In this document: piece after piece, positions 1 to 6,077 of the stretch
Numbering within the stretch: position 1 is the first letter of the stretch
Layout of the letters: each line of letters starts with the position of its first letter
IMG/VR virus record: IMGVR_UViG_2529292726_000014
Location: 1 to 22,431 of that record
Length of the DNA: 22,431 nt
Reading direction: 5' to 3' (one strand)
From: a virus
Lineage: Duplodnaviria > Heunggongvirae > Uroviricota > Caudoviricetes
Position numbers and translations under genes: made by a program
Notes under the pieces: model-generated
Seen by the model: the letters and a program-made list of their open reading frames with translations, nothing else
Database searches by the model: none
Told to the model about the DNA's origin: nothing

Positions 1-453
1 ATCGAGGATGAAATACGGGGATTACCGGAGTCAGAGCGTCTTGCCGTCAGGCAGCAGCGAAGCAAAGTGTTACTGACGTCGCTGCATGAATGGATGGTGG
101 AGAAGAATGGTACGCTGTCGAAAAAATCCAGACTGGGCGAAGCGTTCAGCTATGTACTGAATCAGTGGGATGCCCTCTGTTATTACAGTGATGACGGTCT
201 GGCGGAGGCGGATAATAATGCTGCGGAAAGAGCGCTTCGTGCAGTCTGTCTCGGAAAGAAAAACTTTATGTTCTTTGGCAGCGATCACGGCGGCGAGCGT
301 GGAGCACTGTTGTACGGGCTGATCGGCACCTGCCGTCTGAACGGTATCGATCCGGAAGCGTATCTGCGCCATATCCTGAGCGTACTGCCGGAATGGCCTT
401 CCAACCGAGTTGATGAACTCCTGCCATGGAACGTAGTACTCACCAATAAATAA
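1..453 (+). CDS. IS66-family transposase, C-terminal fragment (5' end lies outside the window)
   Basis: Frame 1 is open from position 1 to TAA at 451-453. The translation ...RALRAVCLGKKNFMFFGSDHGGERGALLYGLIGTCRLNGIDPEAYLRHILSVLPEWPSNRVDELLPWNV matches the conserved C-terminal region of IS66-family transposases as I recall it. The GTG at 67 used by the ORF track is internal. Confidence 0.8.
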   Translation: MEDEIRGLPESERLAVRQQRSKVLLTSLHEWMVEKNGTLSKKSRLGEAFSYVLNQWDALCYYSDDGLAEADNNAAERALRAVCLGKKNFMFFGSDHGGERGALLYGLIGTCRLNGIDPEAYLRHILSVLPEWPSNRVDELLPWNVVLTNK

Positions 454-737: not shown

Positions 738-1057
738 GATGGCGTATGTTGCTGGCAAGATAAAGTCGGCGTAATACAAAGGCGTTACTTGATAGCAGCA
801 AGATTACAACAATGGTTGTTGAATTTGAGCGATGTAAGGAATTGATTTAGGGAGGCGCTGATGGCTAAAAAGTTCCACTACCAGCGGATGAATGCGCCAG
901 CGATGGCCGTTTGGTAGTAAAAGAGGAGCCATTCCTCAATCAGTTGAATACATTATGCCAACTAAATGGGTGGGGGCACTGTGTGGGTATTCAGCGGTGA
1001 CGGTATTTTTTAAGCCAAGGACTATCCGTAGCAGGGGGACTCATTTTGAAATATTTA

Positions 1058-1495
1058 TCATATGTAACTTATTATTTTAGATAAAGATTTCCAGTTAAAG
1101 AAAAAAGTTATCATTGATATAATCAAATATGCCCCTGCGAGTAGCAGGGCATAATAATCCAGAGGCAGATTGCTGACAACAGGGGCAAACATCGAGATCA
1201 TTGCTAATAGGCAGGCTGTGATCAGCGTAGTTCCTGTATCAAAAAGCCCCTCAATAATGCCTTTTAGTACTCCGTTACTTTTTAGAGCGCCTACAATTCC
1301 CTTTGAACTATCAAAGCTACTTAGCATGGTGACTGATGCCAAAACAAAACCAAAGAGAACTCCAGAAATAGTTGAAAGAGCACCAGCAGCCGAAATGACA
1401 GCATTGTGATCTAGGTCGTGTAAAAAATGGGCACCAGCAATAGCCATAGCTAGAGCAAACAATGACTTGGCAGCAAACAATTTCCGAGAACTCAT
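1058..1495 (-). CDS. Small polytopic membrane protein (145 aa, about 3-4 predicted TM helices); candidate effector of a two-gene module
   Basis: ATG at 1495 with an AGGAA Shine-Dalgarno about 9 nt upstream, 12 bp after the stop of the upstream gene. Hydrophobic segments at roughly residues 10-24, 32-60, 88-105 and 113-134. AT-rich relative to the lambda-like genes. Confidence 0.6.
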   Translation of the reverse strand: MSSRKLFAAKSLFALAMAIAGAHFLHDLDHNAVISAAGALSTISGVLFGFVLASVTMLSSFDSSKGIVGALKSNGVLKGIIEGLFDTGTTLITACLLAMISMFAPVVSNLPLDYYALLLAGAYLIISMITFFFNWKSLSKIISYI

Positions 1496-1507
1496 AATGT
1501 ATTCCTG

Positions 1508-2593
1508 TTACGTTTGACTAACCAAATAGTACTGGGTTAGATACCTAAGGTTGTCATTCTTTGCTTGTAGCATAGCATTTTTAACGTCAGTATCGGTCGG
1601 ATACCCATCTGCTTGGATAGGCACCATCTTCTTTACCGTAAGAACTTCGTCTACAAGACTTTTCTTCTTTTTATCGCCCTGAGCAACAACATTTGCTTTC
1701 TCAAAAGTTAAACGACCATCACCACCAGGGAACTTTTCTAGCATCTCCTTAAGGCTTTTTTTAACGTCATCCTCAAGCCATCCCTTTGCTTTTCTTTTTA
1801 ATGGAGAATGTCCGCGTAACGAAATAGTCAGGTGGCTTGAACTGGTGCCTCTGATCATCTCAATCATCTGATTCGCGAACATTCCATCGAGTTGATACTG
1901 TGCGGCATTGAAGTTTCTTGGGATGGCCACAGAAATCTCGCAGCTTCTTAGATTGGATCCAGTTTCGAGTAGTTCTTTGATGCTTTCTTCTTTCCAAATG
2001 GCTTCAAAAGAAACAGGGACTCCGCGATCACTGGAGTTGAAAAGAAGGAAGGCTAAGTCACTATGGCGTGGACCTAAATGATTTAAAGACAATACTAGAA
2101 TGTCTGTCTGAGGATAATAAATAAAGTATGTACGTTCTGAAAGAGTCTTTGCCCCGGCTAGAGGGATTTTCTCTTCCACCCACTCTTTATCTGTAATATA
2201 TGCCAGTGTTGCGCTTTTTCTTCTTCGAGACATGAATCCGAAGTAGGAGCCATCCTCGGGTGAGATGTCTAGAAAATGAATTTTAAGTTCTCTTTCACCA
2301 AAGTCTGCATAGTGGGTCATCTTGAAGTCTTTAGAACACCGATCATACAGATTTTTAAAGGCCTCTGCGGTTAACCCCTTGTTACTAGTGCGAATATTCT
2401 CAGAGCTTGTGTAAAAGCCCACCCTTACAGATTTCAAACTTTGATCTTTTGGTGCCACAGTCATTTGAGCTCCATTGTACTCTGCGAAAGTTTTTGCACA
2501 CCTTGAAATCAAAATCTCCATGTCAGTCACGAGAAAATAACTATGGATGAAACCCATCAAAGGCATTGAATACAGGTGGCTTTTGAGAATCAT
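1508..2593 (-). CDS. Hypothetical 361-aa soluble protein, first gene of a two-gene operon; no family recognised by eye
   Basis: Long uninterrupted minus-strand ORF in an AT-rich segment, ending 12 bp before the membrane-protein gene. No canonical nuclease, ATPase, cyclase or HEPN motif recognised by inspection. Start could be an internal Met (M10, M13 or M25) rather than 2593. Confidence 0.6.
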   Translation of the reverse strand: MILKSHLYSMPLMGFIHSYFLVTDMEILISRCAKTFAEYNGAQMTVAPKDQSLKSVRVGFYTSSENIRTSNKGLTAEAFKNLYDRCSKDFKMTHYADFGERELKIHFLDISPEDGSYFGFMSRRRKSATLAYITDKEWVEEKIPLAGAKTLSERTYFIYYPQTDILVLSLNHLGPRHSDLAFLLFNSSDRGVPVSFEAIWKEESIKELLETGSNLRSCEISVAIPRNFNAAQYQLDGMFANQMIEMIRGTSSSHLTISLRGHSPLKRKAKGWLEDDVKKSLKEMLEKFPGGDGRLTFEKANVVAQGDKKKKSLVDEVLTVKKMVPIQADGYPTDTDVKNAMLQAKNDNLRYLTQYYLVSQT

Positions 2594-2944
2594 CCTAACC
2601 TGGTGACGGTGGTTCGCATATCCTGATGGATGATCAGTGATTAATCAATGCGCCAAGCAGATGTGTCTATGTGTTTGTTAATCATTGCATGACAGTAGAT
2701 CGACATGGGAGATCACGTTATATAGTTGAATTGTTAGGATATCCATGCACCGATCAACTGACTAGGCTGATGTGCTTTTTAGCAGGTGCCATATAGTAGT
2801 TAGGCGGTTCTGTGAAATGATTACTGTTCCAGCATAACTGCGGCATAAAGCGGTGCTATATAAGCTATTTGCTGGCGGATTTAGTCTTCACCGTTAATAT
2901 ATGTAGTGACTATTTGACAGAGTGTTAGTTCACGGACACTTTTT

Positions 2945-3053
2945 GTTGGTTCAAAATGAGTTGATGTTGGTTCAATATTTTAGAAAAAACACAATAAAAA
3001 CAACGCTCTTTACAAATTGAACCAACTGAACCAACTGAACCAACTGAACCAAC
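2945..3053. repeat. Iteron-like array: two inverted copies GTTGGTTCAA (2945-2954, 2966-2975) and about 3.9 tandem copies of GAACCAACT (3019-3053)
   Basis: Read directly from the sequence. Lies in the ~500-bp divergent intergenic region between the minus-strand operon (start 2593) and the PerC-like gene (start 3090). Confidence 0.75.
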
Positions 3054-3089
3054 ACCTTTTTGCTTATCTATATAATCTGAGAGGCAGAA

Positions 3090-3371
3090 ATGATAAGGGA
3101 CAGGAAAGCTGAAGAGCTGGAGTCAAAAGGGCTATACCGGAGAGCTGCCGCACGATGGATGGAAGTCATGCTGTTATGCACCGAGGACGATGATCGGGAA
3201 TGGATAAAGCGCCGCCGTGAAACGTGTCTGGAGAACGTGAAGCGCCCGCCCGTGAAGGTTGAGGAATTTGGCGACCTGCATAAAGCTGTTACCGAAACGC
3301 AACACCGCATGGGGATAGCGCAACCGAACGGTAACGCCTTCCGGTTAAATGGCGGCAAGAGGCAAAGGTAG
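3090..3371 (+). CDS. PerC-family transcriptional regulator (Pch-like)
   Basis: 93-aa product MIRDRKAEELESKGLYRRAAARWMEVM...KAVTETQHRMGIAQPNGNAF matches the conserved PerC/Pch pattern (KAEELE.KGL.RRAAARW, MGI.QPNG) as I recall it. GAGAGG precedes the ATG. Confidence 0.75.
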   Translation: MIRDRKAEELESKGLYRRAAARWMEVMLLCTEDDDREWIKRRRETCLENVKRPPVKVEEFGDLHKAVTETQHRMGIAQPNGNAFRLNGGKRQR

Positions 3372-3974: not shown

Positions 3975-4517
3975 ATGTACCAGCTAAAGATAACCATCCG
4001 AGACAGCAAACCACCTATATGGCGGCGTGTGCTGGTTCCAGAGCAAATCCCCTTTAGTAAACTTCATGCCGTGATCCAGTTAGCTTTTGGCTGGAATGAC
4101 GAACACCTGTATATGTTCGAGAAAGGGCGTAAAGGTGATCCAGGTAGCGAGTATCGCGTATGGGGTGAGGATGAAAGCATGGGTAACGCGGCAATCACGC
4201 CACTATGGGCGGCGCTCCAGAATGAGGGTGACAAGCTGGTTTACACGTATGACTTTGGCGACTGGTGGGATTGCGTCATTGTGCTGGAGAAGCAAACACA
4301 CGATACGAGTAATCAGCCCATTAGCTGCCTGCGTGGGAAAGGCACCACCCCGGCGGAAAACTCAGGCGGCTTGCATGGTTACAATGAATTGCTATTACAG
4401 GCCAGAGAGTCTGATAATCCTGAGCAGGCCGAGATCCACAATTTCCTGATGCTGGATATTGAACGCCGGGTTTACGACCTGAGCCGCATCAACGACAGAT
4501 TGCAGGCTATTAACTGA
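3975..4517 (+). CDS. pRiA4b ORF-3-like family protein (180 aa)
   Basis: N-terminal pattern YQLKITIRDSKPPIWRRVLVP...LHAVIQLAFGWNDEHLYMF and later DFGDWW are characteristic of the plasmid pRiA4b ORF-3-like family as I recall it. Confidence 0.6.
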   Translation: MYQLKITIRDSKPPIWRRVLVPEQIPFSKLHAVIQLAFGWNDEHLYMFEKGRKGDPGSEYRVWGEDESMGNAAITPLWAALQNEGDKLVYTYDFGDWWDCVIVLEKQTHDTSNQPISCLRGKGTTPAENSGGLHGYNELLLQARESDNPEQAEIHNFLMLDIERRVYDLSRINDRLQAIN

Positions 4518-4869
4518 CCCGCATGTATTCACCTGATATTGCGTTATCAGCGCCGCCAGTATCGCGCATAACAGCACAATGACCGGGTAAACCGTAACGC
4601 ACGACCGTTGCGTTAGTCTCACCGCCGCGCCTTATCTGGCGCGATTCATACACTGTCACCCGCTCAAGCAGTCCACCAGCTACCATGCTTTCCAGTGTGC
4701 GCCGGGTTGATTCGAGCTGGTGACGCTTATCGAACGACACCATGCCATGAAGCAGGTAGGCCACACCCGACACATCGAACGGCGGCGCACCAATCTCACC
4801 AGTCACCCATTCGAGGTTATCCGGTTCAAAGTAGCTAAGTATCTCTTTTTTGCGGCTGGTCATTCTCAT
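4510..4869 (-). CDS. Hypothetical protein (119 aa), possible winged-helix DNA-binding protein
   Basis: ORF convergent with and overlapping by 8 bp the preceding gene. C-terminal segment TRRTLESMVAGGLLERVTVYESRQIRRGG resembles a winged HTH. Start may be M3. Confidence 0.4.
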   Translation of the reverse strand: MRMTSRKKEILSYFEPDNLEWVTGEIGAPPFDVSGVAYLLHGMVSFDKRHQLESTRRTLESMVAGGLLERVTVYESRQIRRGGETNATVVRYGLPGHCAVMRDTGGADNAISGEYMRVS

Positions 4870-5767: not shown

Positions 5768-5843
5768 GGCCCTTTAGCTCAGTGGTGAGAGCGAGCGACT
5801 CATAATCGCCAGGTCGCTGGTTCAAATCCAGCAAGGGCCACCA
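5768..5843 (+). tRNA. tRNA with CAU anticodon, ileX/ileZ-like (tRNA-Ile2, lysidine) rather than Met
   Basis: Manual cloverleaf: acceptor GGCCCTT/AAGGGCC, anticodon loop CTCATAA, T-loop TTCAAAT, 3' CCA encoded. Very similar to E. coli ileX as I recall it. Confidence 0.8.
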
Positions 5844-5844
5844 A

Positions 5845-5921
5845 CCGTCACCAGTTCATCAGGAAAGAGCGTCAACCCTTTAAGTTGAGTGTGCGAGGTT
5901 CGAGTCCCCGGTGGCGGTCCA
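5845..5921 (+). tRNA. Atypical or degenerate tRNA-like gene (anticodon loop CCTTTAA; UUU if canonical, Lys-like)
   Basis: A cloverleaf can be drawn (acceptor CCGTCAC/GTGGCGG with one G-U pair, T-loop TTCGAGT, CCA encoded) but with C8, C33 and one T-stem mismatch. May be a pseudo-tRNA. Confidence 0.4.
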
Positions 5922-5923
5922 GT

Positions 5924-5999
<76 letters not shown>

Positions 6000-6002
6000 T
6001 AT

Positions 6003-6077
<75 letters not shown>

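Follow-up and report, generated by a model that had tools for sequence, protein, structure and literature searches.

What is the function of the two AT-rich genes found at positions 1,058 to 2,593 of a 22,431-nucleotide stretch of caudovirus DNA (IMG/VR record IMGVR_UViG_2529292726_000014, positions 1 to 22,431; this whole stretch is hereafter the window)? A preliminary description, made from the sequence alone, had seen there a candidate abortive-infection module resembling the lambda RexA-RexB system, arguing from architecture: a large protein followed by a small membrane protein. The two co-oriented minus-strand genes, 12 bp apart, lie in the list of open reading frames (ORFs) exactly where it had them, and the AT-richness it had noticed is borne out by the base composition, the guanine-plus-cytosine (GC) content of the pair being 0.41, where the whole window has 0.53 and the lambdoid structural genes have 0.57. 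As to protein size, the 145 amino acids (aa) of the small protein stand, but the 361 aa given for the large one are most likely 318 aa, counted from M44. We consider the pair to be probably a distant homologue of the lambda RexA-RexB phage-exclusion (abortive-infection) system, which the lysogen or carrier cell would express from a mobile element, and put the probability of this reading at about 0.72. The architectural argument is now backed by remote homology of fold and profile, beyond layout.

The large protein was modelled with AlphaFold2 on an alignment of 26 sequences (predicted local distance difference test, pLDDT, 75; predicted template modelling score, pTM, 0.65). When this model was searched with Foldseek against the full PDB, a check that the preliminary description had suggested, RexA was the top match and the sole one at E ≤ 1e-3 (E 7.3e-7, prob 1.0), with RdgC next. 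The order of secondary structure elements is that of RexA, a beta-rich N-terminal part being followed by a strand-plus-helix middle domain and C-terminal helices, and the model has the split globular domain and the dimerisation domain of the RdgC-like RexA fold. No homology of the large protein to a housekeeping, metabolic or phage structural family, which the preliminary description had regarded as damaging to its proposal, was found.

Sequence searches place the large protein in an uncharacterised family. Only 133 relatives, mostly of 280-320 aa, came out of 1.84 billion representatives searched exhaustively with an HMMER profile. The Pfam family DUF6731 (PF20505), to which Pfam gives no function, is matched by 103 of the 117 full-length profile relatives scanned and by 12 of 26 close homologues at 43-50% identity. 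For the protein of the window, PF20505 gives no match at E ≤ 1, which is short of the Pfam threshold; it is thus assigned, by transitive homology only, to a divergent enterobacterial subfamily of DUF6731. Distant members come from Shewanella, Pseudoalteromonas and Vibrio. When homologues were sought with the broad profile (A2, 117 sequences), the close relatives were largely those already known, and there was no named protein of Pseudomonas among them. A homologue at 44% identity is also found in Escherichia phages vB_EcoS-733R5 (ON470608.1 30253-31170) and vB_EcoS-716R3 (ON470622.1 15482-16399), where it is labelled 'portal (connector) protein', almost certainly a misannotation.

The broad profile was aligned with hhalign to a RexA family profile of seven members: those of lambda, Klebsiella phage ST101-KPC2phi6.1, Hafnia phage yong1 and Salmonella phage MS2 LVA, plus three from prophages of Symbiopectobacterium, Xenorhabdus and Morganella. 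A scan of genome contigs for RexA had yielded only three useful diverged RexA/RexB pairs. The match (Prob 62%, E 7.5e-5) covers 219 colinear columns, from query residues 13-261 against RexA residues 2-237, and a GPxxSDL motif is common to the DUF6731 profile and RexA. The real alignment scores 38, against at most 19 for a reversed and 30 column-shuffled templates. Profile support for homology of the large protein to RexA is moderate, not decisive. The contig scan had otherwise given mostly lambda rexA, seen at 100% identity in assemblies of unrelated taxa (loci L017-L046: Shewanella, Kitasatospora, Capnocytophaga, Bradyrhizobium, Helicobacter and others); these copies are almost certainly lambda control-DNA contamination of the assemblies.

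The small protein is, as the preliminary description had it, of the size and four-helix class of RexB. The two differ in length by one residue, and the hydrophobic peaks of the small protein (6-24, 40-58, 89-107 and 115-133) fall at almost the same places as the peaks of lambda RexB (8-26, 48-66, 84-102 and 116-134). Lysine and arginine residues are confined to the N-terminus, the loop between transmembrane helices (TM) 2 and 3, and the C-terminus, which by the positive-inside rule argues for a four-TM topology with both termini in the cytoplasm (N-in/C-in) and a basic cytoplasmic loop as in RexB. Among the partners of the distant DUF6731 genes, the loop after TM2 (for example RRLIQKMKEYGHY) resembles that of RexB (RRLAKIREYGYM). 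An hhalign profile of five such distant partners matches the RexB family over 72 columns (Prob 89%, E 2.2e-6), and a profile of all 21 partners aligns window residues 29-93 with RexB residues 37-107 (Prob 37%, E 3.6e-4); the RexB controls score at most 17. The partner family also has a strongly conserved motif, SAAGxLSTxxGxLFGFxLA. It is likely that the small protein is homologous to RexB, a relationship established transitively and over half the protein only.

Whether the two genes belong together was examined in relatives of the large gene, another check put forward in the preliminary description. In all 16 loci examined, at large-protein identities of 17-100%, the order is the same, a rexA-like gene closely followed by a co-oriented partner of 134-152 aa; one further copy of the partner, cut by a contig end, is 117 aa. 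Relative to the end of the large gene, the start of the partner falls anywhere from 41 bp before it to 33 bp after it, a spacing consistent with an operon. These pairs (Table 1) occupy moron slots on several mobile elements that are not related to one another, among them the slot beside cI: at locus L012 the arrangement is the lambda cI-rexA-rexB position. The presence of a pair in a tectivirus-like Vibrio element indicates that the cassette crosses virus realms. The window pair recurs at 100% identity in 42 of the 5426 complete E. coli genomes, and homologues that match over their full length, at 43-91% identity, are known from at least eight enterobacterial genera (Klebsiella, Pantoea, Cronobacter, Citrobacter, Rahnella, Yersinia, Salmonella and Xenorhabdus), so that both ORFs are genuine rather than due to chance. 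The distribution is that of cargo, and the low GC of the pair (0.41) fits cargo gained horizontally.

Standard family searches give a different picture. Scans of Pfam, NCBIfam and PADLOC gave nothing significant for either protein; two sub-threshold hits, TubZ-like_C (E 0.026) and DUF2649 (E 0.08), were taken as chance noise. The statement in the preliminary description that no sequence identity to RexA or RexB could be seen was therefore correct for Pfam and PADLOC. In PHROGs both proteins have strong matches, the large one to phrog_7651 and the small one to phrog_8552, two families without assigned function. Megablast of the locus against the INPHARED phages gave no match, and hmmsearch of PDB sequences with the narrow profile of the large protein (A1) none at E ≤ 10. 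The literature search found no mention of DUF6731, PF20505 or either RefSeq accession.

Several observations weigh against descent from Rex, or against a lambda-like function. The RexA models (Pfam PF15969, PADLOC PDLC02339) do not match the large protein at E ≤ 1, nor do the RexB models (PF15968, PDLC02340) match the small one, and these same models recover the lambda proteins, used as positive control, at 1e-61 to 1e-110 (lambda RexA at 1e-97 with Pfam and 9e-110 with PADLOC). With hhalign, the A1 profile against the single RexA sequence and a profile of 16 close small proteins against RexB both gave no significant signal; one emerged only once the profiles included the distant DUF6731 members and their partners, and even then the probabilities were moderate (62% for RexA, 37% for RexB). 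The RexB match spans just TM2, the next loop and TM3, and the AlphaFold2 model of the small protein, four long helices, is too poor (pLDDT 60) for a fold search. The window pair is not adjacent to an immunity repressor, lying instead at the accessory end of a satellite-like element, and no match to the sigma-70 consensus was found on the minus strand at 2594..3089, so that the promoter of the pair was not found. The literature search likewise retrieved no experimental data for the pair or for any member of DUF6731. Finally, Rex-type pairs are mechanistically heterogeneous: the roles are reversed in mycobacteriophage Butters, and RexA has functions independent of RexB.

How does the pair compare with known systems? 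Lambda RexA (PDB 8TWQ) and RexB, of families PF15969 and PF15968, are the natural reference, yet identity of the large protein to RexA is only about 13-15%, RexA is 279 aa against 318 aa here, and lambda rexAB lies downstream of cI in the immunity region and is co-transcribed with it (a typical, not universal, placement), unlike the pair in the window. RexABpp of P. putida prophage P1 (PP_5643/PP_5644; Sci Rep 2026, PMC12894663) differs in the length of its membrane protein, RexBpp having at least 181 residues against 145, and in its host and phage background. The Rex-like pairs of actinobacteriophages (Sbash gp30/31, CarolAnn gp44/43 and Butters gp30/31) combine a RexA-like cytoplasmic DNA-binding dimer with a membrane protein, act as prophage-expressed heterotypic defences and vary in their placement relative to the immunity repressor (PMC11077077). 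They belong to Gram-positive hosts, Butters with its roles reversed, and are likened to the window pair by description.

RdgC proper was considered and rejected. The E. coli protein (PDB 2OWL) is a far weaker structural match than RexA, and it is a chromosomal housekeeping gene product that lacks a membrane partner and forms a closed ring dimer; in the window it is the secondary match, and the gene is no stand-alone chromosomal one. Similarity to the kinetochore proteins CENP-N/Chl4/Iml3 reflects a distant fold relationship already known for RexA and RdgC and offers no functional lead. The pair is best filed as a distant member (the DUF6731 branch) of the Rex superfamily. The suggestion in the preliminary description that it could be a new family needs a small correction: it appears as a distant branch of the Rex family, and not as an unrelated one.

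A mechanism may be proposed by analogy with lambda RexAB and RexABpp. The 318-aa RexA-like protein would be a cytoplasmic dimer with an RdgC-like two-domain fold, binding DNA non-specifically, as its basic character (pI 8.9) and predicted fold suggest. Upon infection by another phage it would sense a cue, for which a phage protein or a DNA-protein intermediate of replication or recombination has been proposed in the case of Rex. It would then activate its 145-aa four-helix partner in the inner membrane, which might oligomerise into a channel or damage the membrane in some other way. Membrane potential and ATP would collapse, growth would halt, and the infecting phage could not finish its cycle. 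For Rex, RexB is described as depolarising the membrane and aborting the infection (PMC12894663; PMC11077077). From this likeness we infer that dimerisation, DNA binding, activation of the RexB-like by the RexA-like protein, depolarisation, and indeed any phage protection at all, would apply to the window pair as well.

The homology could be accepted and the wiring still be that of Butters, in which case the cytoplasmic RexA-like protein would be what arrests growth or acts against the phage, with the membrane protein only sequestering or restraining it until infection sets it free. All of the Rex homology evidence fits such a scheme equally; in Butters gp30/gp31 it is the RexA-like protein that acts as effector, and defence does not require the membrane protein (PMC12894663), the lambda logic thus not being universal, and a basic large protein (pI 8.9) with a DNA-clamping fold could plausibly block replication directly. 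We nevertheless think it unlikely. The membrane protein is the effector in four of the five described Rex-like systems, including both Gram-negative ones, lambda and P. putida (PMC12894663), and the strict co-conservation of the membrane partner, together with its conserved SAAGxLSTxxGxLFGFxLA motif, suggests an active role, not that of a tether. Less probable again is a role other than defence, in which the RexA-/RdgC-like protein would act on DNA transactions or on the lysis-lysogeny switch on behalf of its element (for example the bistable switch of a helper, or RecA activity), the membrane protein being accessory. Lambda RexA, a non-specific DNA binder, biases the lambda switch towards lysis without RexB, and T4 rII exclusion does not strictly need DNA binding (PMC11077077); RdgC, the next PDB relative, is a recombination modulator; and the pair rides on a satellite-like element dependent on a helper phage. 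Yet no locus examined lacks the membrane partner, even where the element has no CI-type switch nearby, and an AT-rich pair that moves as a unit among unrelated elements and slots behaves as self-contained cargo, not as a regulator tuned to the operators of one phage.

Could the likeness to RexAB itself be convergent, or an artefact of modelling? We would then be dealing with an unrelated two-gene module, for example a toxin-antitoxin-like, holin-like or Kiwa-like one. The failure of the curated Rex hidden Markov models, hhalign probabilities below 90%, AlphaFold2 confidence that is moderate for the large protein (75) and poor for the small one (60), and the commonness of small four-TM bundles all point that way, and in Kiwa too a four-TM protein is joined to one of about 315 aa that binds DNA. 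Kiwa (KwaA/KwaB) was rejected on inspection: no PADLOC or DUF4868 match was obtained, and its gene order is reversed, the four-TM KwaA preceding KwaB. Fold and profile evidence converging on the same system, in a gene pair of the same order in every locus, leaves us regarding this explanation as improbable, on a par with the non-defence role, and we retain distant homology to lambda RexA-RexB as the preferred reading.

RexAB is the oldest abortive-infection system known, and what RexA senses and how it gates RexB are questions that go back to Benzer's work on rII. The link of DUF6731 to RexA, and that of its unnamed partner to RexB, appears not to have been reported before. It is somewhat likelier than an even chance that DUF6731 and its four-TM partner constitute a broad, unrecognised branch of the Rex superfamily, of about 130 clusters at 50% identity, moving as a cassette among lambdoid phages (including the toxin-converting cdtI), P4-like satellites, tectivirus-like Vibrio prophages and defence islands. 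As of 2026, only five Rex-like systems had been described (PMC12894663). A link to Rex would give a testable function to two PHROG and Pfam families without an assigned one, and would account for a cargo module that phage cdtI and 42 of the complete E. coli genomes carry. That the PADLOC and Pfam Rex models miss the DUF6731 branch points to a gap in current defence finders. The pair would also provide, native to E. coli, a diverged homologue with which the Rex mechanism could be dissected by comparison: if active in E. coli, it would be a second Rex system that has diverged independently and is genetically tractable, and comparison of the two could reveal the cue of RexA and the gating of RexB. 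A P4-like satellite element would moreover gain a candidate item of defence cargo, in line with the view of satellites as defence hotspots. One might speculate that the satellite deploys the pair to fend off whatever competes with its helper phage, or as a means of manipulating that helper.

The reading of the two genes calls for some precision as to their limits (Table 1). The longest reading of the large ORF is 1508..2593 on the minus strand, 361 aa, but its true start is almost certainly the ATG of M44 at window position 2464, as four indications agree: M44 is the position at which all 25 aligned homologues (309-322 aa; alignment A1) start, the RefSeq protein (WP_001528727.1) is 318 aa, the phrog_7651 match starts at residue 46 of the 361-aa reading, and a GGAG lies 5 nt upstream of this ATG. 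The upstream ATG of the longer reading has a poor Shine-Dalgarno sequence, an AGG abutting the ATG, and the 5' extension is seen in one homologue only, a 352-aa gene call (P0001) from an assembled read set. For the small gene, an AGGA stands 7 nt before the start ATG. GC at third codon positions is 0.34 in the small gene and 0.40 in the large one. Downstream, the terminator scan gave 2 sites against 2.7 expected in shuffles, so that the hairpins at 874..937 are not significant alone.

The preliminary description had pointed to prophage accessory cassettes as hotspots of anti-phage genes, but the pair does not lie in an accessory cassette of the prophage itself. Its carrier, an integrative element that is P4-like or satellite-like and about 18.5 kb long, occurs in the window, where it has inserted into a lambdoid prophage, and in the 42 E. 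coli genomes; the pair lies in the AT-rich distal end of this element. Its genes comprise an integrase, an AlpA-like helix-turn-helix (HTH) regulator, an AntA/B antirepressor, Ash, an Icd-like protein and a TOPRIM-DUF927 primase, then, unusually, two DNA ejection/injection proteins of P22 type, followed by the pair, PerC and a protein of the pRiA4b-ORF3 family. In strain M10 the element is inserted at a tRNA-Thr gene (thrW), and in strain 510016 and the window it lies inside the DNA methyltransferase gene of a lambdoid prophage; the 12-mer ATGGGGGTACTT occurs near both of its ends (window 4988). Identity to the otherwise identical element of E. coli 510016 starts at window position 484, everything leftward being replaced by a fragment of the IS66 family of insertion sequences (IS), and the carrier has therefore been interrupted or truncated by an IS in this genome. 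None of the three accessory-end genes next to the pair, those for PerC, the pRiA4b ORF-3 protein and the 119-aa hypothetical protein, accompanies the Rex-like pair in other genomes.

Table 1. Position and surroundings of the Rex-like gene pair in the window, and settings of related pairs in other elements (window coordinates unless a locus is named; L numbers are loci of the comparison set)
Feature	Position	Strand	Remarks
rexB-like small gene	1058..1495	-	145 aa, 15.3 kDa; WP_000098670.1; phrog_8552; predicted four-TM inner-membrane effector, N-in/C-in
Intergenic spacer, 12 bp	1496..1507	-	holds the ribosome-binding site of the small gene (CAGGAATACATT)
rexA-like large gene	1508..2464	-	318 aa, 36.1 kDa, pI 8.9; DUF6731 family; WP_001528727.1; phrog_7651; predicted cytoplasmic dimeric DNA-binding sensor/activator
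5' in-frame extension of large ORF	2465..2593	-	43 codons; probably untranslated
AT-rich region upstream of pair	2594..3089	-	presumed promoter location of the pair
Two weak terminator-like hairpins downstream of small gene	874..937	-	possible operon end
Carrier element	484-~5000; L001 5861-24100; L002 3871-22090
IS66-family transposase, C-terminal fragment	67-453		junction 483/484
PerC-family transcriptional regulator	3090-3371		accessory-end cargo
pRiA4b ORF-3 family protein	3975-4517		accessory-end cargo
119-aa hypothetical protein	4510-4869	opposite	accessory-end cargo
Related pair, L012			follows, 63 bp downstream and in the same orientation, a CI-type repressor (HTH_3 + Peptidase_S24); the repressor faces a cro-like gene running divergently
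Related pairs, phage cdtI (orf54/orf53), E. coli and Yersinia prophages		opposite	between Q antiterminator and methylase/lysis genes
Related pair, Rahnella			at prophage end, adjoining dinI genes
Related pair, L050			adjoins Mrr-type nuclease and integrase
Related pair, Vibrio phage 10N.286.54.F4_PE001	L053 1389-2896		351 aa + 150 aa, directly after integrase; 14.6-kb temperate tectivirus-like (Vinavirales) element

A few further features of the window and of its relatives deserve mention. Between the rexA-like gene and perC, the 9-mer TGAACCAAC forms a six-copy cluster at 2945-3053, with four tandem copies at a 9-bp period on the plus strand (3017-3053) and two inverted copies (2945-2954 and 2966-2975); the window as a whole contains 7 matches at no more than one mismatch, against 1.6 expected. 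The cluster resembles iterons or operator sites, and possibly represents an ori/crr-like site for the P4-alpha-type primase of the element. In the prophage, ARAGORN predicts a cluster of four tRNA genes at 5768-6077 (Met-CAT, Lys-TTT, Thr-TGT and Gly-TCC), and for the corresponding stretch of strain 510016 RefSeq gives three tRNAs only (Ile, Thr and Gly). The lambdoid prophage of that same strain carries, just downstream of Q (L001 3462-4765), a protein-kinase-domain gene and a PP2C phosphatase gene, and these may be another prophage accessory or defence-type pair.

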